Source: Enterobacteria phage vB_EcoM_IME341
Length of the DNA: 64,000 nt
Sequence record: MH051917
Reading direction: 5' to 3' (one strand)
The notes under the pieces are model-generated. The model had not been told where the DNA came from. It made no database searches and saw only the letters and a program-made list of their open reading frames with translations. Positions 1,235 through 61,290 of this stretch are shown in pieces. The position numbers were made by a program, and so were the translations under genes. How positions within the stretch are numbered: the stretch's first letter is position 1; every line of letters starts with the position of its first letter.

Positions 1235-2951
1235 CAATAGTGTATTGACCTGATGCTATAGAACTCATGGTCGACATAGTTTCAGACCAATTACCGGCAA
1301 CAGTCATATCAACGTTTCCGTTTACAGACCATTTAACGTTTCCATTTACTGTGTAATCATGGTTGCCTTCAACTAATGTTTTTGCATCACCTTTAACAGT
1401 TATATCGGCATTGCCTTCAACAATAACCGTAACGTTCCCTTTAACAATAAGGGTCCCATCACCTTCTACAGTTTTGGTTTCATTACCGCGAATATGGATG
1501 CTTTCGGACCCATCAGTTTGACGGCGCACGTTTGCCATATTATAATAGGTTTCATCACCACCTATATTGACTTTATTATTACCACCAACATAAGTATTTG
1601 AATCACCTTGGGTCATATAATACCCATCAGCTACAGTCTTAGAAGTTTTACGTCCGTCGGGAGCAACTTCTTCATAACTACCAGTTGGGTGGATTAAACG
1701 ATAACGTTCTTGCCCTGGGGTGTTATCGAATTCTTGAATATGTCCACCTTCAGTTTGCATGGTTTGGACATATGGGTATTCGCCTTTATAACTAGAATCA
1801 GGCTCTTTAAAAAGAATCCTTGTGTCTTCTGGAGTCCACGGATCGGCCGGGTCTGAATTTGTAGGAGCAGCAAAAGTTTGAATCATCCTATACGAACGCC
1901 CTTTAAATTCTCGTTCTTTAGGAGCCATTATGCCGTATGATTCCATATTACCGGTAAGGATAATCATTGATACCCTTGATGCACGCCCTTTAGTTTGGTT
2001 AAACCATACCGAATTTCTAGCTTCTTCAAATGCCTTTTTATAATCGCCTACTAACATTGCACCGAGCATACCACGGAATTTAGCCAACCCACCTAATCCC
2101 ATTTGGAAAGCCATGTTTTCAAGGGCCATTTGTCTTGAACGGTTTTCTTTATTGTAAACAGGACCTACAACACTGTGCCTACCTATATCATTTTGAACTT
2201 TTTTAAGGTCCTCTTGGAATAATTTAGAAGCCTCGTCCATTGATATTGCACCAGGGTTACCTTTAACTTCACGGCCTATTTGATTAGATAATATTTTGTT
2301 TATCTGATTCATATCTCTAATAGGTTGTGGTGTAATAAGGTGGCCTATACCTATAGTAGGATACCCTTCGGTGTCCCAATATACTTTAAGACGAAGACCC
2401 TCATCACGATGAAGCATGTTTTCTATTGTGAAATTAGGATTATCGTCAGGCTTGACTTGACTTAAATCTAAACCATCAGGATTAATACCTACATCAGTGT
2501 TTGCATCTTGTATTACGTTAGAAGTCGCATCATATCCAACTTCACCACCTCGGTTTAGTGCAGCAGCATCATTACCTAAATAAAGTGGGTATTGGCCTGT
2601 TGGGTCACTAAAACCTTCATTAGGGTTTGCTTTTTGTTTTGAAGCGGAACCGTATGTACCAAGGACAAGCCCGTTTAATTTCCACTTATCAAGAAAGTGG
2701 CCATAAACTTGTGTACCCGGGACCATACCTGTCATAGCGGTTTGGATACCAGAAACAGAGGCTGAAGATGTAGGCATTAATACTGACATCCATGGTAAAT
2801 CTTCTGTACGAAGGCCTTTTACAGGGCCCTGTACCTTTTCATAGGGATGCATACCCCATACGCGTACACGCACGCGACCTTGTTTGAGAGGGTCCATTCG
2901 GTCTTCAACCACACCGACGAACCAACTTACATTATCAGACATGTTAATCAT
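1209..2951 (-). CDS. 5: gp5 baseplate hub subunit and tail lysozyme
   Basis: 580 aa; N-terminal MINMSDNVSWFVGVVEDRMDPLKQGRVRVRV, lysozyme core YWDTEGYPTIGIGHLI, C-terminal VxGNxxV beta-helix repeats; T4 gp5 architecture. Confidence 0.95.
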   Translation of the reverse strand: MINMSDNVSWFVGVVEDRMDPLKQGRVRVRVWGMHPYEKVQGPVKGLRTEDLPWMSVLMPTSSASVSGIQTAMTGMVPGTQVYGHFLDKWKLNGLVLGTYGSASKQKANPNEGFSDPTGQYPLYLGNDAAALNRGGEVGYDATSNVIQDANTDVGINPDGLDLSQVKPDDNPNFTIENMLHRDEGLRLKVYWDTEGYPTIGIGHLITPQPIRDMNQINKILSNQIGREVKGNPGAISMDEASKLFQEDLKKVQNDIGRHSVVGPVYNKENRSRQMALENMAFQMGLGGLAKFRGMLGAMLVGDYKKAFEEARNSVWFNQTKGRASRVSMIILTGNMESYGIMAPKEREFKGRSYRMIQTFAAPTNSDPADPWTPEDTRILFKEPDSSYKGEYPYVQTMQTEGGHIQEFDNTPGQERYRLIHPTGSYEEVAPDGRKTSKTVADGYYMTQGDSNTYVGGNNKVNIGGDETYYNMANVRRQTDGSESIHIRGNETKTVEGDGTLIVKGNVTVIVEGNADITVKGDAKTLVEGNHDYTVNGNVKWSVNGNVDMTVAGNWSETMSTMSSIASGQYTIDGSRIDIG

Positions 2952-3553
2952 TAGAGGGCTTTCTCCATTTCGCGAATAAGGGCAGAAATAAAGGACTCAA
3001 TATCATTAGGGTCTACAATCTTTATTTCGCGCTTATATTCATTTTTACGAATAGCATCCTCGTAAATATCTACTGCGGCCAAAGGGCCCTCATATTGAGG
3101 ATAACGTTTTTCTGTATCGCCTTTATCATACCAAGTGTACGGGTTTTCTGGAGTGTTAACAAGATTCCAGAATTTCTCACCCTTTTCATTAACATGATAA
3201 AGAACTTGATTACCACCTGCAGTAGAATATCTTTGGATAGCTGCTTGATAGGCCGCTTCTTGACCTGTAATCCAGCCGTAATAGGGGTCGTATATATTAT
3301 TGCACATCAATAAAACCCAGTATAATTGAACATTGCCATAAAGTTGATGGGCCAATTCTTCCGGACGAGGAGCCCCATTGATATAATAAGTTTTTAGTGT
3401 ATAATTTTTAGCCACTTTATCAAAATATTCTTTATAATTTCTAAATATATCAGTCATCGGCACGCTCAATACATCGGCATTGGTTAATGAGCCCGAATCC
3501 GGCTTGACTGTTTTTGATTCGTAATCGATAGGATCGAAAAATGAGAAGAGCAT
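2951..3553 (-). CDS. 53: gp53 baseplate wedge subunit
   Basis: 200 aa ORF directly upstream of gp5 on the same strand, divergent from gene 4 as in T4; SD GGAGG upstream. Confidence 0.8.
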   Translation of the reverse strand: MLFSFFDPIDYESKTVKPDSGSLTNADVLSVPMTDIFRNYKEYFDKVAKNYTLKTYYINGAPRPEELAHQLYGNVQLYWVLLMCNNIYDPYYGWITGQEAAYQAAIQRYSTAGGNQVLYHVNEKGEKFWNLVNTPENPYTWYDKGDTEKRYPQYEGPLAAVDIYEDAIRKNEYKREIKIVDPNDIESFISALIREMEKAL

Positions 3554-3564
3554 AGGGCCTCCGA

Positions 3565-3572
3565 GTATAAAT
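3565..3572 (+). promoter_or_regulatory. T4-type late promoter TATAAATA for gene 4
   Basis: Exact TATAAATA about 27 nt upstream of gene 4 ATG, followed by SD AAGGAGG. Confidence 0.6.
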
Positions 3573-3579
3573 AATATTA

Positions 3580-3587
3580 ATATTTAT
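3580..3587 (-). promoter_or_regulatory. T4-type late promoter TATAAATA (minus strand) for gene 53
   Basis: Plus-strand TATTTATA = minus-strand TATAAATA about 27 nt upstream of gp53 start. Confidence 0.6.
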
Positions 3588-3599
3588 AAGGAGGCGACT

Positions 3600-4049
3600 A
3601 TGGCTTACTCAGGGAAATTTAAACCTACAAACTTACAAAAATATAAAGGTGACTGGAAGAAAATCCAATATCGTTCCTCTTGGGAAGCATGGTTTATGCG
3701 TTGGCTTGACAACCATCCTAATGTAGTCCAGTGGAATTCAGAAGAGGTGGTTATCCCATACTTTTGCAATGCTGAAGGAAAGAAAAGACGTTATTTTATG
3801 GACTTCTGGGTTAAATTTGATACAGGTCAACAATTCTTTTTTGAAGTCAAACCTTTTAAAGAAACCCATGCTCCTGCGGTGCCTGTTAAAATGACTACGG
3901 CCGCTAAAAAGAGATATATCAACGAACACTATACTTGGTCTGTTAATACCGATAAGTGGAAAGCAGCTAAAGCTACAGCAGATAAAATGGGTATCACCTT
4001 TAGATTGATTACCGAACATTCACTGAAAAAATTAGGATGGAAAGGATGA
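3600..4049 (+). CDS. 4: gp4 head completion protein
   Basis: 149 aa, [22 protein letters not shown]... matches T4 gp4 N-terminus; synteny 4-2-3-1. Confidence 0.9.
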
Positions 4050-4873
4050 GTATATTTTCCTACATCAATGAGGCTACTGAAACCACAAAAGGTTCTAAGC
4101 CTACCCGTTCAGAACAACAATGGATAGCTTTAGGTGTTGAATATGCCAAAGCTAAGGCTAAAGGTGTCTCGGCTAAGAAATTCGCTGAAGATAAAGGCAT
4201 TAAGTATTCTAGCTTTACATCTGCGATGTCTCGATACTCGAGTCGAATTAAAACCGCTGTACAGGTTGAAAAGCTTCAGAAGAAACCTGGCAATAAATTA
4301 ACCAAAGCCGAACGTCAATTAATTTTGGTAAACAGTTTTAGAAAGAGTATTCGTGATAAGATTGCTAACGAAGGCGCTGCTGTAAACAATAAATCCGCTA
4401 AATGGTTTACAGAAACATTAAAGAAAGGAATTCGTGGACACCAGGTATCTAAACCACAACCTGGAAAGCTTTATGCTTATATCTATGACGCTAAACACAA
4501 GGATACCCTACCGTACTGGGACAAATATCCTTTAATCATTTATCTTGGGTTAGGTAAGCATAATTTAATGTATGGTCTGAACTTACACTATATCCCACCT
4601 AAAGCACGCCAACAATTTCTAGAAGAATTGCTGAAGCAATACGCGAGTACGCCTACCATTACCAACTCGACTAAATTAAAAATCGATTGGAGTAAGGTAA
4701 AAGGATTCGCTGGTGCAGACGTTATGATTAAGGCTTATATCCCTGGAAATATTAAAGGACCTTTAGTAGAGATAAAACCATCTGATTGGGCTAATGTGGT
4801 CATGATGCCTCTCCAACAGTTCATGTCTAAAGGCAAGCGTTATTCAGCTCAGAAAGTATGGAAGAACTCATAA
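4037..4873 (+). CDS. 2: gp2 DNA end protector protein
   Basis: 278 aa (T4 gp2 about 274 aa), position between genes 4 and 3. Confidence 0.85.
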
Positions 4874-4958
4874 TAATCTATTATCCCAGCCAGTTATTGA
4901 ATGGAACAGACCTAGGACCATTATACACTGTCTGGGACTTAAGCAATATAGGAACCCT

Positions 4959-5549
4959 ATGAACGGTTTATTTAACCAAACTAACACCACCAACTTTATC
5001 TTAGAGGTTAGTGACTCAGGAATGACCCAGTCATTCAAATTGAACGTACAAGATGTAACACTACCTGGTATCCATATTCCGATCTCAGACGTCCCAGGAT
5101 CGACCCAGGGTATACATCGTGCTAAGCTGCCAGGTTCTACAGTAGAATTCGACCCATTGGTCGTGAACTTTCTTGTAGACCGTGAATTGAAATCATGGCT
5201 TGATGTTTATAAGTGGATGTTGTCATTAAACAACTACGTAACCCACGAATCCGAAGCTTGGCATCCTAAAGGCTTACCTGAAGCAATTACGCTCCATATT
5301 CTTGATAATAACAAACAGAAAATCGTAATGAGCATTCATTACTACGGTGGTTGGCCATCCGACCTATCCGAAATCCAGTACTCATATAAAGAGGATTCCG
5401 ACCCTGCGATAATCGCTACAGCAACATTCAACTTCAAATCGTTTGCTGTAGAAATAGATGGTACAATAGTTACAGGTCGTCCACAAATTGATTCGTATGC
5501 CGAACAACGTGTGGCTCGTATGTCTATGCATCCATCTATGAGAAAATAA
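4959..5549 (+). CDS. 3: gp3 tail completion / sheath stabilizer protein
   Basis: 196 aa ORF between gene 2 and gene 1 as in T4. Confidence 0.7.
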   Translation: MNGLFNQTNTTNFILEVSDSGMTQSFKLNVQDVTLPGIHIPISDVPGSTQGIHRAKLPGSTVEFDPLVVNFLVDRELKSWLDVYKWMLSLNNYVTHESEAWHPKGLPEAITLHILDNNKQKIVMSIHYYGGWPSDLSEIQYSYKEDSDPAIIATATFNFKSFAVEIDGTIVTGRPQIDSYAEQRVARMSMHPSMRK

Positions 5550-6302
5550 TGAAACTAATATCAATTGTAGGAATCAAACGTAGCGGTAAGGATACCGTTG
5601 CTAACTATGTAATCGAAAATATGGATTCGGTAAAATTTCAGCTCGCGGGTCCTATTAAAAAGTATCTGGCTGAAGCCTATGAATACATCTCTGATGACCC
5701 TGTATTCGACCGTAGTTATATGCCTAAACTCGATTTTAACTGTTTTGAAGGTATCGGTTACGACCGCGAAGAAATCCTTCCTTTAAAACCATATGATGTG
5801 ATTGATATCTTTGAAAATGCTATTGTCAAACTGAATAATATCCTTCCTATTCCGGGAATTGATGTTCTTACCGCATATCATTATGGTCTTACCCCAGTCC
5901 AGTATCTGTCTGAAGAAACAAAAGACCAACTGTTTGAAGTAATAAATAAAAATAACAATTGGTCAGTACGTCGTCTCATGCAGACCCTTGGGACCGATAT
6001 TATTGTTAACCAATTTGATAAGATGTATTGGGTTAAGTTGTTCGCTTTAGACTATTTTGATAAAATATACTCTGATGCGAAATACTATGTCGTACCTGAT
6101 GTTCGTCAAACACACGAAATTGATTCGCTCAGAGCGATGGGTGCTACGATTATTCATGTAGTTCGCGCTGAAACCGGTCAAGTACAAGACTCGCACATCA
6201 CTGAAGCGGGTCTACCAATTTTACCTGGTGACGTTGTTGTTGAAAATAACGGCACTCTTTCTGAACTATACACTACTATTGATAAATTATTAGGAAATAA
6301 AA

Positions 6303-26023: not shown

Positions 26024-26260
26024 ATGAAACTTACAAGTACTACGGTTTCATTAGAATATGAAATCAACGGTCGTATCCTTGAGATTAAGATATTCGACGA
26101 CCGAAGTATCTTTGCCGATTATCGAGGATACAGAATTCGTCTGGAAAAGGACGAGCTCAAGGAACCGTGGCTCCTTAAAGACACATTAAAGGGTTGTGGG
26201 TGTAAACTGAAAACCACCCAAGCCCAAGAATTAATTTCTACTATCAACAAATACTGGTGA
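26024..26260 (+). CDS. hypothetical protein
   Basis: 78 aa. Confidence 0.5.
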   Translation: MKLTSTTVSLEYEINGRILEIKIFDDRSIFADYRGYRIRLEKDELKEPWLLKDTLKGCGCKLKTTQAQELISTINKYW

Positions 26261-26264
26261 TATT

Positions 26265-26447
26265 ATGTTAACTACTGAACAGTGTGCAAAAATTCTTAAA
26301 TTGGCTATTGAAATTGAAAGAGATTCTAACGACCTTGCGGTTGAGATGTGTGAAGGTTATTCATATTCCGGAATAGAACGGTGTAAACGAGATTTGGCTA
26401 AATCAAAACAGGCTTTGGTTGATTATTTAGAAGAATTGAAAGCATAA
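26265..26447 (+). CDS. hypothetical protein
   Basis: 60 aa. Confidence 0.45.
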   Translation: MLTTEQCAKILKLAIEIERDSNDLAVEMCEGYSYSGIERCKRDLAKSKQALVDYLEELKA

Positions 26448-48305: not shown

Positions 48306-48668
48306 ATGATTGAAATTACTCTGAAACAACCTGAAGACTTCTTGAAAGTGAAAGAGACCCTAACTCGTATGGGTATTGCTAATAATAAAGAAAAGAAACT
48401 ATATCAATCCTGCCACATTCTGCAAAAGCAAGGGCTATATTATATCGTCCACTTTAAAGAGATGTTGCGTATGGATGGCCGCCAAGTTGATATTGATGGT
48501 GAAGACTACCAACGTCGGGATTCTATTGCCCAGCTTCTTAAGGAGTGGGGACTGATTGATATTGTAGATGAATCTGAACTGTTTGAAATCACCAATAACT
48601 TCCGTGTCATTTCCTTTAAGCAGAAAAATGACTGGGAACTATTGTCCAAATACACAATCGGTAATTAA
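48306..48668 (+). CDS. regA: RegA translational repressor
   Basis: MIEITLKQPEDFLKVKETLTRMGIANNKEK...; highly similar to T4 RegA. Confidence 0.9.
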   Translation: MIEITLKQPEDFLKVKETLTRMGIANNKEKKLYQSCHILQKQGLYYIVHFKEMLRMDGRQVDIDGEDYQRRDSIAQLLKEWGLIDIVDESELFEITNNFRVISFKQKNDWELLSKYTIGN

Positions 48669-48669
48669 T

Positions 48670-48885
48670 ATGATTCATGAAATTGAAACGTGTGAACGAC
48701 TTAAAGAGGTGTACGGGCTTTCCACAACTCAAACTGTTTTTGACCTTTCCGAAGAGCTCCAAATAGAATTTCAAAAGGACCTCCAAAAGTTACTACATCC
48801 TGGCCAGCAAGTCTTCCAGGCTATGATTAAAACTAAAGACGAAGATGGTAATTCAACTATTAAACGTCAGACAATAGAAATTTAA
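48670..48885 (+). CDS. hypothetical protein
   Basis: 71 aa between regA and gene 43. Confidence 0.45.
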   Translation: MIHEIETCERLKEVYGLSTTQTVFDLSEELQIEFQKDLQKLLHPGQQVFQAMIKTKDEDGNSTIKRQTIEI

Positions 48886-51678: not shown

Positions 51679-51680
51679 GT

Positions 51681-51710
51681 GTTTACATACCACAAGGAAC
51701 GTGGTAGTAT
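51681..51710 (+). promoter_or_regulatory. early promoter (GTTTAC / TAGTAT) with inverted repeat
   Basis: gtttacataccacaaggaacgtggtagtat. Confidence 0.5.
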
Positions 51711-51741
51711 CCTTCCTATCAACTACTTAGAGGAAATTACA

Positions 51742-51978
51742 ATGGAAGCTTTAATCGTTAGTGCTGGTGTTTTAGGATTTGGTTCTCTGGTTATTATGTT
51801 CATCGGTTACTTTTTACCATGGATTTTAGCTCTTCTGCGAGGCACTCGTAGTAATGTAGGAATTTTCTTCCTTAATCTCCTGTTGGGTTGGACGATGATT
51901 GGTTGGGTAGTGGCTTTAATCTGGGCTATCGTCGCTGAACGTAAATCAAACGCACAAATCATTATCGTTAAGCAATGA
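51742..51978 (+). CDS. superinfection immunity (Imm)-like membrane protein
   Basis: 78 aa, two TM helices; directly after gene 43 where T4 has imm. Confidence 0.55.
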   Translation: MEALIVSAGVLGFGSLVIMFIGYFLPWILALLRGTRSNVGIFFLNLLLGWTMIGWVVALIWAIVAERKSNAQIIIVKQ

Positions 51979-52112
51979 AAATAATTATTTTATTTCTTAT
52001 AATGGCTGCCTTTACCGTTTATTGGGCAGTGGCAATTCCGCCAATGATTCCGACACTAATCATCGGATGGATTATTCTTATAGCACAAATTAAGTATAAC
52101 TGTTTTAATTGA
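51975..52112 (+). CDS. possible 45-aa membrane peptide
   Basis: MKIIILFLIMAAFTVYWAVAIPPMIP... Confidence 0.35.
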   Translation: MKIIILFLIMAAFTVYWAVAIPPMIPTLIIGWIILIAQIKYNCFN

Positions 52113-52119
52113 GGATATT

Positions 52120-52620
52120 ATGAAAAAGTTAATTATCGCAATGAGTATACTCCTATCAGGTTGCGCGGCCCAATATGGTGATGCAGTTTCAGCCGATGAA
52201 GTTGGTAAAGCTCGTATCGCAGCTGAACAGAAACAATTCGATGGCGAAATGAAATTCCGTGCAGGTTCTGGACTTGTGTATACCCGAGCTAATAATCAAT
52301 GCGGTAATAACTGTGCAAAATATGCTCAAAGGGAAATCGAATTCCAACGTGAACAAGAGTCTAAGCGTGAAGCGGTACTAGCCAAACACCAGGCAGAAAT
52401 GAAGCGCCAAGATGATTTGTACAAAAAGCAGAAACTGTATGCGATGTGCGTAAACCATATCAATCTACAGATTTCTATCCATGAGGCTCGTTATTACGAA
52501 ATGCTCGAAACCGAGAGCTTCGATAAAGCCCGTGATTATAAGAAACAAATCAATAAGCTCAAGACCAAAGTACCGGCGGCAATAGAACAGTGTATTGAAA
52601 TCGGTAAAGATAAGATTTAA
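52120..52620 (+). CDS. predicted lipoprotein
   Basis: Signal peptide with lipobox LLSGC; coiled-coil rest. Confidence 0.55.
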   Translation: MKKLIIAMSILLSGCAAQYGDAVSADEVGKARIAAEQKQFDGEMKFRAGSGLVYTRANNQCGNNCAKYAQREIEFQREQESKREAVLAKHQAEMKRQDDLYKKQKLYAMCVNHINLQISIHEARYYEMLETESFDKARDYKKQINKLKTKVPAAIEQCIEIGKDKI

Positions 52621-52680
52621 GCAATACCAATTTATTAAAAATAGTGTATAATGTACCTACATTCACTTGAGGAACAGATA

Positions 52681-54354
52681 ATGAAAAAGGTTGTTATTTT
52701 AGGCGCAGGTCTTGGCTCACGGTTGTATCCAATTACTAACGAAATCCCGAAGGTATTGGTTAACTACAAACAACATACTGTATTAAAACATTTGTATGAT
52801 TTGTATAGTAACCAATCGGATGAAATTATTCTGGTTATTCACAGCAAATTTAACGACCTCGTTAAAGGCTATATTAAATCCATTAACATGATTAATAGTG
52901 ATAAGCCTAAATTCACTATTCGTAACGTAGATGTGGCTAATGGTTCAGCTCATGCTATTGATTGCATTGCCGAAGATATCATCGGGCACAATGTCTTGTT
53001 TAACTGGTGTGATATTATTCCTGAAGGTTATAAAGTTGAGTGGGATAACGACTATTGCTATACCTACGGGACTGACTGTCGTTTTACATTTGAAGAACCG
53101 TACTTGCGTGAAATTGGTACCGGTGGTGGCGTAGTTGGCTTGTATCAGGTGGCTAATTGGACAGGTTTTAACGGTCTGTATTATGGCGAAGACCTGGCCG
53201 ACAACCTGGATTCAATGGTCCATTTGACCGAACGTAAGCTAGACTTTGTAGTTGATGTCGGTGACAAACTGAAACTGGCTAAGGCCCATGAAGAATCTGA
53301 AATTAACCGTGAATTTAATAAATTAGAGTTCACTGAGAATCTGGCTATTAAAGTACCTACCAACGAATTAGGTAAAGAAATCCAATCTAAAGAAATCAAT
53401 TGGTATAATTCTATTGATTCTGAATTTGTTCCGAGCATTGTAGACTTTGCTCCAGGTGAATTCATTAAAATGGAACGTATCTTTGGTCGTACTATGGCAG
53501 ATGCCTATCGGTTTATGTCTAAAGAAACTAAAGTCCTCATGGTTTATAAGGTCATTAGTGCATTACGTTCATTCGGTGGAACTATCGATAATCCATCCGA
53601 TGAGCAATGGTATTCCGATGTTAAGAAAGAAGTATTGGACAAGGTCCTTATTCGTAATGCTTCTATTGCCGGATTGATTGAAGGCTTTGCTCCACAGGGC
53701 ATTACCCATGTCAATGACTTTAAGGTAGGCGACCCTGAAAAACTTCTTCGCCATGCACTAGAAATTCTGTCTGAACATAAAGAACCGTACCAACTTATTC
53801 ATGGCGACCCGCACTACAGTAATATTATGTTGTCGGACGAAGGTGATATTAAAATCATCGACCCACGTGGTTATTTTGGTAATAGTTCTAAAGGCCCTGC
53901 GATTTATGACGAAGCTAAAGTGCTTTATTCTATCGATGGTTATGACAAATTTAACTCTGACCCTCTATGGGGCGGCTTAACTCGTAACGGAACTCGTGTA
54001 TTCGTTGATATTGAAAAGGTTATGCCTTTAGACGATATTCCGATGTGTACATTTAAGCACAAGCTCTGGATTGCTGTTATCTGGATGGCATTGGCAGGTT
54101 ACTTTAAAAATAACCCTCTGAAAGCTCTGGGTGCTTATTACAACGGGTTGTACCAACTGAGTGTGCTGCTTAAGCGGCATCCTCGTAAGCGTAAGCTTAT
54201 CACAGGTGAATTTGTCGATGAAGTTCGTGACCCTATCACGGCTCAAATTATCACTCGTTGTCCTGATAAGTGGGTTTTGCTTGACCAAGAAACTGGTGTA
54301 AAATATAAACCTACAGGTTCTACTGAACTCCACAAACAATGGAAGAAAATTTAA
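52681..54354 (+). CDS. bifunctional sugar-1-phosphate nucleotidyltransferase / APH-fold kinase
   Basis: N-terminal NTP-transferase motif ILGAGLGSRLYP; C-terminal kinase motifs LIHGDPHYSNIML and IDPRGYFG (Brenner / DFG-like); 557 aa. Confidence 0.65.
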   Translation: MKKVVILGAGLGSRLYPITNEIPKVLVNYKQHTVLKHLYDLYSNQSDEIILVIHSKFNDLVKGYIKSINMINSDKPKFTIRNVDVANGSAHAIDCIAEDIIGHNVLFNWCDIIPEGYKVEWDNDYCYTYGTDCRFTFEEPYLREIGTGGGVVGLYQVANWTGFNGLYYGEDLADNLDSMVHLTERKLDFVVDVGDKLKLAKAHEESEINREFNKLEFTENLAIKVPTNELGKEIQSKEINWYNSIDSEFVPSIVDFAPGEFIKMERIFGRTMADAYRFMSKETKVLMVYKVISALRSFGGTIDNPSDEQWYSDVKKEVLDKVLIRNASIAGLIEGFAPQGITHVNDFKVGDPEKLLRHALEILSEHKEPYQLIHGDPHYSNIMLSDEGDIKIIDPRGYFGNSSKGPAIYDEAKVLYSIDGYDKFNSDPLWGGLTRNGTRVFVDIEKVMPLDDIPMCTFKHKLWIAVIWMALAGYFKNNPLKALGAYYNGLYQLSVLLKRHPRKRKLITGEFVDEVRDPITAQIITRCPDKWVLLDQETGVKYKPTGSTELHKQWKKI

Positions 54355-54713
54355 TGCATCTGTGTTTTGATATCGATAACACAATCACGGTTTGGAACCA
54401 CGACCGTGATTATGAAAACTTTAAACCGGACACCGAAATGGTGTCCATGATTAATAAGCTTTATGACGAAGGTTATGAGATTACACTGTTCACTGCTCGT
54501 GGCATGACTTCATGTGGACCCGGTCGAATCTTGGTTGAAGTAGTTCCTGCATTGGTTAAGAACCTTGAAAAGATTGGATTGAAATATCATAATCTGCTTA
54601 CACACAAGCCGAGTTATACTTTTATCATCGATGACCGAGCAATCCGTCCTGACCACTTTAAAGAAATGGTTCGTGAAGGAACTCTTGAAACCTATAAGGC
54701 ATATCATCCGTGA
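54354..54713 (+). CDS. HAD-superfamily phosphatase
   Basis: Motif I FDIDNTIT (DxDxT), motif II TLFTARG, motif III K...IIDD; 119 aa. Confidence 0.65.
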   Translation: MHLCFDIDNTITVWNHDRDYENFKPDTEMVSMINKLYDEGYEITLFTARGMTSCGPGRILVEVVPALVKNLEKIGLKYHNLLTHKPSYTFIIDDRAIRPDHFKEMVREGTLETYKAYHP

Positions 54714-55246
54714 AACCAAAAATCATTGTTATCGACGGCCCGGATAATTCCGGGAAGTCTACTTTAATTGAATCACTTTTATCTGATAAGAAATATCGTC
54801 TTATTGATTTTCCTAAAAAGATTAATGGCAAATGCATTTCATTAGGGACTGATAATGACAAGGCTTTAGTCGAGACGTTGTATAAGTTTTTAGACCCTAA
54901 TTTCGTTTACATCCTCGACCGTGGTTATCCAAGTAATATAGTTTACTCAGGATTCCTTCGTGGTGAAATGGACCCTTATGTGGAACTAGCAGATTGGATT
55001 GATTTCAAAAAAGAATTCAATATCATTGAGATTATTTTAACCCGTAATCCGTTGGATAAAGACTTTGAAGATGACCTCATTAAACTGACTAAAGATGAGT
55101 TCAACTTAACTATTCAGAAATATGAAGACTGTTTTAAAAATGTTTTTAAAGTTTTAAACCATGACGGACATAATAACTTGCTTAACGTCGATATGGTAGA
55201 ATTAAAACGTCTGAATGAATATATTGAAAATAAGGTGAATAAATGA
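54710..55246 (+). CDS. P-loop nucleoside/nucleotide kinase-like protein
   Basis: Walker A IDGPDNSGKST in a 178-aa protein (dNK/TMK-like size). Confidence 0.55.
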   Translation: MKPKIIVIDGPDNSGKSTLIESLLSDKKYRLIDFPKKINGKCISLGTDNDKALVETLYKFLDPNFVYILDRGYPSNIVYSGFLRGEMDPYVELADWIDFKKEFNIIEIILTRNPLDKDFEDDLIKLTKDEFNLTIQKYEDCFKNVFKVLNHDGHNNLLNVDMVELKRLNEYIENKVNK

Positions 55247-60996: not shown

Positions 60997-61290
60997 ATGA
61001 AAAAGTTATTAATCGCAGCAATCCTTACAGTAGCATCATGTGGCACGGCTCCAGTTACGGCTGGATTGGATAAAGACCTTTGTGAATGGTCTATGACTGC
61101 AGACCAAGAATCGGTTGAACATCAGATTTATGCTGATATCATGAACATCACTAAACGCGACCGCCCTGATATGGCTAAAGAAGTGTCAGACCAATTAGCT
61201 TCAGGTGGCGTTATGCAATATAACTATGTTTTGTATTGCGATGCCAATTTCGATAACAAAAATATCGTTAAAGAGGTGACAGGTGAATAA
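60997..61290 (+). CDS. sp: Spackle (Sp) periplasmic protein
   Basis: 97 aa; signal peptide/lipobox LTVASC; DKDLCEWSMTADQ and GGVMQYNYVLYCD resemble T4 Sp (61.3). Confidence 0.75.
   Translation: MKKLLIAAILTVASCGTAPVTAGLDKDLCEWSMTADQESVEHQIYADIMNITKRDRPDMAKEVSDQLASGGVMQYNYVLYCDANFDNKNIVKEVTGE

Follow-up and report, generated by a model that had tools for sequence, protein, structure and literature searches.

In the window analysed here, a 64,000-nucleotide (nt) stretch of Enterobacteria phage vB_EcoM_IME341 (sequence record MH051917), three small genes lie head to tail directly 3' of gene 43 and behind one conserved early-promoter-like site: imm, a gene for a 45-residue membrane peptide and a gene for a 166-residue lipoprotein. 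By its sequence, the source phage is a T4-like Dhakavirus of the JS98/MX01 type. With a little more than even confidence, the trio is read as a compact early transcription unit in which three envelope-targeted proteins are neighbours, the lipoprotein serving a role in periplasmic conflict that is independent of Imm. This reading is carried by the occurrence of the lipoprotein and the peptide in phages with no imm beside them and by the discrete replacement of the lipoprotein head in a close relative. An earlier reading of the same DNA, made from the sequence alone, had placed three open reading frames (ORFs) after gene 43 and joined them in an expanded superinfection-exclusion module. All three ORFs were recovered on the plus strand, and the locus is laid out as follows:

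51682..51710, plus strand: early-promoter-like site, TTTACA, a 17-nt spacer and TAGTAT, with TG before the second hexamer
51742..51978, plus strand: imm, encoding a 78-residue predicted inner-membrane superinfection-immunity protein with two hydrophobic segments
51975..52112, plus strand: gene for a 45-residue membrane micro-protein (phrog_3610, the T4 'Y02C' family), its ATG overlapping the imm TGA as ATGA
52120..52620, plus strand: lipoprotein gene, 166 residues, with its own GAGGA ribosome-binding site
52120..52164, plus strand: predicted lipoprotein signal peptide and lipobox L-S-G-C, Cys15 at 52162-52164, with Ala at +2
52165..52418, plus strand: conserved N-terminal module of the mature lipoprotein, with a predicted tether, short helix, beta-hairpin (G-S/T-G-x-x-Y), N-Q-C-G-x-N-C motif and charged stalk helix
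52419..52620, plus strand: predicted C-terminal helical head of the lipoprotein, a replaceable cassette (residues ~100-166, with Cys110 and Cys158)

The lipoprotein matches phrog_1754 from residue 1 to residue 163 (E 1.8e-51) and scores 228 bits against the hidden Markov model (HMM) of its family. The signal peptide and lipobox that had been read from the sequence are confirmed, the L-S-G-C occupying residues 12-15. A lipobox is found in nearly all of 34 family members and none of them carries Asp at +2; in E. coli, lipoproteins without Asp at +2 are sorted to the outer membrane, so an outer-membrane anchor is predicted. Judged from the collections searched, the family appears small and restricted to T-even phages: it forms 11 clusters at 90% identity among 5.8 billion proteins, a profile search of 1.84 billion proteins returned 19 representatives at 50% identity, and the 114 phage-collection records that hold it are all of T-even type with Enterobacterales hosts, the gene always lying beside gene 43 near 25-30 kb. 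Across 26 diverse members the positions G49, G51, Y54, C110 and C158 are invariant, while Q60, C61, G62, N64 and C65 of the N-Q-C-G-x-N-C motif are at least 90% conserved. The cysteines comprise the lipid-bearing Cys, a CxxxC pair and two distal residues. Both cysteines of the CxxxC are missing together in P0019, P0026 and the Proteus phage and never singly, a pattern that suggests two periplasmic disulfides, C61-C65 and C110-C158 being the predicted pairs.

The AlphaFold model of the lipoprotein, built from the 26-sequence alignment, has a predicted local distance difference test score (pLDDT) of 79.9, with values above 90 in the head. The model displays a low-confidence tether, a short helix, a beta-hairpin at residues 42-56 and a single helix at residues 62-131 whose proximal part is 41% charged, and two further helices (residues 134-162) pack back on the distal third of the long helix. 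Structure searches returned no specific fold match. Every comparison between genera finds higher conservation in the N-terminal 100 residues than in the C-terminal 66; thus the window protein and its VR7 counterpart are 64% identical in the N-terminal part and 26% identical in the C-terminal part. Within Dhakavirus the boundary is sharp. In the contig L018 (SRR25011185) both flanks of the cassette are 93-100% identical to the window in nucleotides, whereas the ~210 nt corresponding to window positions 52419-52628 are only 33-57% identical. At the protein level gp43, Imm and the downstream enzyme of this contig are 99.7%, 100% and 98% identical to those of the window, residues 1-100 of the lipoprotein are 95% identical and the head is 24% identical, with the two head cysteines preserved. 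The alignments show that the head has been replaced in L018 as a discrete cassette. General hypervariability of the head was considered and rejected, the heads of Dhakavirus isolates being 92-100% identical and P0004 being the sole discrete replacement documented. No new head types emerged when IMG/VR and metagenome contigs were scanned with the N-terminal 100 residues. The family itself has been catalogued as phrog_1754, with its function unassigned; the modular architecture and the cassette swap seem to be described here for the first time.

Several other identities of the lipoprotein were set aside. In the scans of the lipoprotein and the peptide, the matches to MTBP_mid (E 0.006) and FlgB (E 0.016) are below the cut-offs of those models and reflect coiled-coil-like composition, and the likeness to Cor (phrog_1119, E 0.0066) covers residues 1-18, which are the signal peptide only. 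An outer-membrane spanin subunit was likewise rejected: no inner-membrane partner gene is adjacent, the context is an early operon and the mature part is long and helical. Edwardsiella phage PEi20 encodes separate pseT.2/pseT.3 spanins besides its lipoprotein.

The order and the company of the three genes change from one group of phages to another:

T4: gene 43, lipoprotein (Imm.1), imm, peptide, gene 42
Gelderlandvirus (Proteus phage): gene 43, lipoprotein, imm, gene 42, with no peptide there
Dhakavirus and Gaprivervirus: gene 43, imm, peptide, lipoprotein
Kanagawavirus, Mosugukvirus, Winklervirus and Kagamiyamavirus: gene 43, lipoprotein, isomerase, peptide, nucleoside triphosphate (NTP)-transferase/kinase, with no imm at the locus
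RB69: gene 43, isomerase, peptide, with no lipoprotein and no imm at the locus

The lipoprotein of the Proteus Gelderlandvirus, found in the T4 order, is a full-length member of the family (E 3e-16). In five genera the peptide gene is joined to the gene for arabinose-5-phosphate isomerase and not to imm. The complete genome of PEi20 was searched in six frames with local HMMs, the other phages being compared at the gene 43 locus. PEi20 encodes the lipoprotein (E 4e-59) and the peptide (E 5e-29), while the Imm HMM scored no better than 9.8 bits, a noise level, anywhere in its genome, and the annotation lists no imm; the phage retains sp. Each gene of the trio thus occurs without the others, so the three are better described as neighbours than as parts of an obligatory complex, and an obligatory Imm-centred complex is unlikely. 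The trio genes do cluster and are probably co-expressed.

A metagenomic phage (173 kb contig, L016/L017) displays, at positions 2618-6209, gene 43, imm, peptide, lipoprotein, a SIS-domain isomerase, an 86-residue ORF and an NTP-transferase. This locus has the Dhakavirus order together with the isomerase of the Kanagawavirus-type loci.

The promoter-like site of the window agrees with the two hexamers at 9 of 12 positions and falls within the 63 nt that separate the stop of gene 43 from the start of imm. It forms part of an element, GTTTACA-N17-(G)TGGTAnTAT, situated directly after the gene 43 stop (window 51679-51712, and likewise in L002, L003, L005-L010, L017 and L018) and kept in most of 10 aligned genomes, whether imm or the lipoprotein gene comes next. 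The element resembles the T4 early-promoter consensus. Promoter-like sites are no more numerous in the region than chance would give, so support for the promoter comes from its position and its conservation and not from the count. A search for an intrinsic terminator behind the lipoprotein gene found none, and with the conserved promoter-like site this makes co-transcription of the trio early in infection likely. The spacer of the element also holds a small CCAC...GTGG inverted repeat.

The 78-residue protein had been described from the sequence as a two-segment membrane protein in the position of T4 imm, and this description holds. Its gene is preceded by a GAGGA ribosome-binding site 7 nt 5' of the start, and hydropathy places hydrophobic stretches at residues 2-33 and 39-67. 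It scores 65.1 bits (E 5e-18) against PF14373 (Imm_superinfect, gathering cut-off 27.9 bits), covering profile positions 2-42 of 42, and matches phrog_1039, 'immunity to superinfection', with an E of 3e-32. Alignment with T4 Imm runs end to end over 81 columns with 43% identity (E 2e-22), and by this similarity the window protein is the orthologue of T4 Imm. Translation from the GTG at 51679, which would give 99 residues, is improbable; it is the ATG at 51742 that lines up with the N-terminus of T4 Imm. Homologues of Imm are present in 1663 phage records, including Klebsiella and Acinetobacter phages and mycobacteriophages. By homology to T4 Imm, the window protein would reside in the inner membrane and would block the passage of DNA from a second T-even phage across this membrane.

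The textbook account of superinfection exclusion in T-even phages involves two genes, imm and sp. Imm expressed from a plasmid is said to give exclusion (Lu and Henning in 1989), and classical T4 genetics, as attributed to Vallee and Cornett and to Lu and Henning in 1994, reportedly credits exclusion to imm and sp. Imm has also been associated with lysis inhibition that collapses prematurely and with resistance to lysis from without (PMC6832632; PMC7677548), and in a screen of accessory genes Imm on its own scored as protective for hosts (PMC12373910).

The 45-residue hydrophobic peptide of the sequence-only reading proves to be a real gene product, as judged by its family match, its orthologues and purifying selection. 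The window peptide matches phrog_3610 over residues 2-45 (E 1.4e-21). A local HMM built from 9 orthologues recovers the family in 11 genomes of about 9 genera with E values of 1e-22 to 1e-29, the window peptide itself scoring 1.3e-22. Homologues of 45-49 residues are encoded by T4, RB69 (ORF054c), VR7 ('gp42.1'), PEi20, PM2, CBH8, EcS1, Q7622, CIP9 and one metagenomic phage, and they share the C-terminal motif IYW..P.MIPT...W....Q.KY.CFN. The ratio of nonsynonymous to synonymous substitution rates (dN/dS) is 0.13-0.28 where dS is measurable, synonymous sites being saturated or nearly so in the other pairs. The ATGA overlap of the peptide start with the upstream stop is present in 11 of 11 genomes; the overlapped gene is imm in the window, JS98, T4, VR7 and L017 and the arabinose-5-phosphate isomerase gene in RB69, PEi20, PM2, CBH8, EcS1, Q7622 and CIP9.

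In T4 the orthologue is a 49-residue ORF, MKSKIIAALLLILMIIISIYYSVTVPLMIPTIILGWSLLLLQVKYECIN, in the 153-nt '42-imm intercistronic region' (T4 26227-26376, minus strand; L001 4228-4377), where its ATG overlaps the imm stop; it carries no annotation in NC_000866. BLASTP aligns the window peptide with this ORF at E 3e-13, with 53% identity over the C-terminal 30 residues. As annotated, RB69 ORF054c and JS98 orf44 fall about 10 codons short of full length. The Pfam family PF26865 (Phage_T4_Y02C) has a precomputed match on the 46-residue L017 orthologue, which is 56% identical to the window peptide; the window, T4 and VR7 peptides gave no PF26865 match at E<=10 in the local Pfam copy, which probably lacks the model. 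The family has been catalogued before, yet it is uncharacterised and absent from the T4 reference annotation. Hydropathy resolves two hydrophobic segments around a P-x-M-I-P-T turn, and the peptide has no acidic residue. It is predicted to fold as a hairpin of two segments within the inner membrane, and the single Lys at each end suggests that both termini are cytoplasmic. Cleavage by signal peptidase I after A-V-A (residues 18-20) was rejected, the motif not being kept in the orthologues.

In the favoured reading, a compact early unit of neighbours with an Imm-independent lipoprotein, the lipoprotein would be processed by signal peptidase II, sorted by the Lol system and anchored on the inner side of the outer membrane, projecting into the periplasm. 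There it would present the CxxxC and beta-hairpin module, a helix of ~70 residues and a helical head pinned by the second cysteine pair. The conserved part may bind a target that Enterobacterales envelopes have in common or that T-even infections share, and specificity may be set by the exchangeable head. Most likely the role would be one of conflict, between phages or between phage and host, in the periplasm of a cell just infected, where the lipoprotein could exclude or protect alongside Imm and Sp and independently of both.

A number of points weigh against this reading. The lipoprotein and the peptide gave no significant match in Pfam, NCBIfam or PADLOC, and no functional data on imm.1 or the 42-imm ORF were found in the literature, genome-wide T4 fitness screens included. 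The activities of imm and sp leave little known residual phenotype for a third exclusion factor. The cassette swap is one documented event (2 contigs), set beside heads that stay 92-100% conserved among Dhakavirus isolates. The ~70-residue helix of the monomer model may in fact be part of an oligomeric coiled coil. Finally, the Imm HMM used on PEi20 was made of four T-even Imm sequences, and a very divergent analogue could escape it.

Of the other explanations, the one that survives best is that the lipoprotein and the peptide are unrelated to phage exclusion and act as early envelope accessory factors, which might stabilise the envelope, take part in lysis inhibition or timing, or counter host envelope defence or stress. 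This is a serious candidate, though clearly the less probable one. Independence from Imm fits it as well, as do early expression, which is shared by many T4 host-takeover genes, the narrow lineage-specific distribution typical of accessory genes, and a likeness to known exclusion lipoproteins that is limited to the signal peptide. However, related genomes encode their spanins, holin, RI and RIII at other loci, and the discrete swap of a head is rather to be expected of conflict proteins that determine specificity than of housekeeping ones.

A bolder form of the conflict reading, which we regard as rather unlikely in its full extent, would make the phrog_1754 lipoprotein, with T4 Imm.1 as its alternative-head variant, a third and hitherto unrecognised T-even periplasmic conflict factor. 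Its head would intercept a component of the competitor virion or a host envelope defence, recombinational swaps of the head would retarget it, and Y02C would act apart from it as an inner-membrane factor that nearly all T-even phages share.

Improbable is the three-part exclusion module itself, in which the peptide and the lipoprotein would physically aid Imm, for example by bridging both membranes at the injection site, and Imm would need both for full exclusion. The adjacency of the genes in Dhakavirus, Gaprivervirus, T4 and Gelderlandvirus is consistent with such a module, as are the common early-promoter-like site, the overlap of imm stop and peptide start in T4, VR7, L017 and the window, and the predicted placement of all three products in the envelope. 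Yet the lipoprotein and the peptide persist in PEi20 with no detectable Imm, the peptide is coupled to the isomerase gene in five genera, the RB69 locus has the peptide with neither imm nor lipoprotein, and the Proteus phage has lipoprotein and Imm with no peptide there. Moreover, the 1663 records of Imm stand against 114 of the lipoprotein, Imm alone protected hosts in a screen (PMC12373910) and reportedly excludes when expressed from a plasmid, and gene order is not conserved. From the module proposed by the sequence-only reading, the Imm orthologue, its predicted envelope neighbours and their compact shared unit are thus retained; a single functional exclusion module is not, given PEi20 with no detectable Imm and RB69 with the peptide alone at the locus.

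That the peptide serves the adjacent DNA-modification genes, as a membrane anchor or regulator for instance, is very improbable. In its favour, the peptide gene immediately precedes gene 42 in T4 and sits between the arabinose-5-phosphate isomerase and the NTP-transferase/kinase in RB69, PEi20, PM2, CBH8, EcS1 and Q7622. Against it, the VR7 locus carries no modification genes, the peptide gene there being succeeded by the lipoprotein gene and then uvsX; in the window the lipoprotein gene stands between the peptide gene and the modification cluster; and we know of no precedent or mechanism for such a peptide in DNA modification.

The reading of the trio as neighbours changes what is worth pursuing around imm. 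Here and in T4, the neighbourhood of imm holds two more conserved, probably early envelope proteins that are uncharacterised. Their independence from Imm argues for testing them singly rather than as a complex, and the conserved anchor and predicted stalk of the lipoprotein, with the replaceable head, offer a concrete handle on specificity. If neither the lipoprotein nor the peptide had an effect on exclusion, the region would be an ordinary cluster of accessory genes.

The surrounding genome is closely shared. Some 50 Dhakavirus genomes (including JS98, Bp7, MX01, WG01, QL01 and IME08) are 95-98% identical in nucleotides over 1.1 kb at the trio, and all sequenced Dhakavirus genomes already contain the trio, labelled 'hypothetical protein'. 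The Dhakavirus genomes named are T-even phages of E. coli and Salmonella. Upstream, the order 62, regA, 43 is the same as in T4. Between regA and gene 43 there is a small ORF at window 48568-48885 (plus strand), where JS98 has orf47 and VR7 has ORF053c ('similar to RB32 ORF047c'); it is kept in Dhakavirus, Gaprivervirus and PEi20 and is not in the T4 annotation at that position.

Downstream of the trio, window positions 52651-55246 (plus strand) and beyond hold an RB69-type arabinosyl-hydroxymethylcytosine DNA-modification set. It includes a 567-residue fusion of NTP-transferase and kinase, which is a homologue of RB69 ORF53_52c, a 124-residue HAD-like protein and a 178-residue protein resembling deoxynucleoside monophosphate kinases. 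Dhakavirus IME08 gp43 is named in PMC6024577. In the near-identical contig L018 the next gene is gene-42-like (PF00303). RB69, PEi20 and L017 have an arabinose-5-phosphate isomerase gene at this locus, and the window lacks one there.

The second exclusion gene lies apart from the trio, as had been noted from the sequence:

60997..61290, plus strand: sp (Spackle), PF25676 match at E 1.3e-42, ~8.4 kb downstream and outside the cluster

The window Spackle has a lipobox-like V-A-S-C at residues 12-15 of its signal peptide, and VR7 has L-A-S-C at this place. The motif raises the question of whether signal peptidase II acts on the protein instead of, or besides, signal peptidase I.

Among known systems, the exclusion idea for the lipoprotein draws on a functional analogy with Llp of T5 and Cor of phi80, N15 and T1-like phages. 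These are small phage exclusion lipoproteins that block receptors, Llp being an early protein of a lytic phage. Like them, the window protein is a small phage lipoprotein predicted to be in the outer membrane; in contrast to them, it is 2-3 times larger and mostly helical, and its mature part matches neither in sequence nor in fold. Nor is it related in sequence to T4 Spackle (gp61.3), the early periplasmic protein that inhibits the gp5 lysozyme of superinfecting virions (PMC7677548) and whose gene in the window is 8.4 kb away.

A closer counterpart is T4 Imm.1, a lipoprotein of 125 residues with the lipobox LAGC, encoded between gene 43 and imm, of the early class for RNA and protein (PMC9697503 supplement). 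Imm.1 scores 239 bits against DUF5481 (PF17578), a model to which the window lipoprotein has no match at E<=0.1. A search with Imm.1 returned Tequatrovirus copies only, too few for a profile. Comparison by hhalign nevertheless aligns the first ~50 residues of the two proteins with a probability of 96% (E 2e-9). Both are predicted lipoproteins of the same locus with a homologous signal peptide, tether and first ~50 residues, and both have four cysteines in the mature part in a 2+2 arrangement, whereas the remainder of Imm.1 does not align and the gene order differs. From these alignments it is possible that Imm.1 is an alternative-head relative of the phrog_1754 lipoprotein.

With the Y02C family (the T4 ORF, RB69 ORF054c and VR7 gp42.1) the window peptide shares its length of 45-49 residues, the C-terminal motif and the ATGA overlap with the upstream gene. 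It departs from the T4 ORF in the N-terminal hydrophobic segment, which is poorly conserved, and in being followed by the lipoprotein gene where the T4 ORF is followed by gene 42. The window Imm is five residues shorter than T4 Imm and its gene directly follows gene 43, whereas imm.1 sits between 43 and imm in T4. In both phages, Imm displays two hydrophobic segments and the core LPW..AL.RG..S.VGIFF...L..W..IGW, and its gene lies downstream of gene 43 in an early-promoter context.

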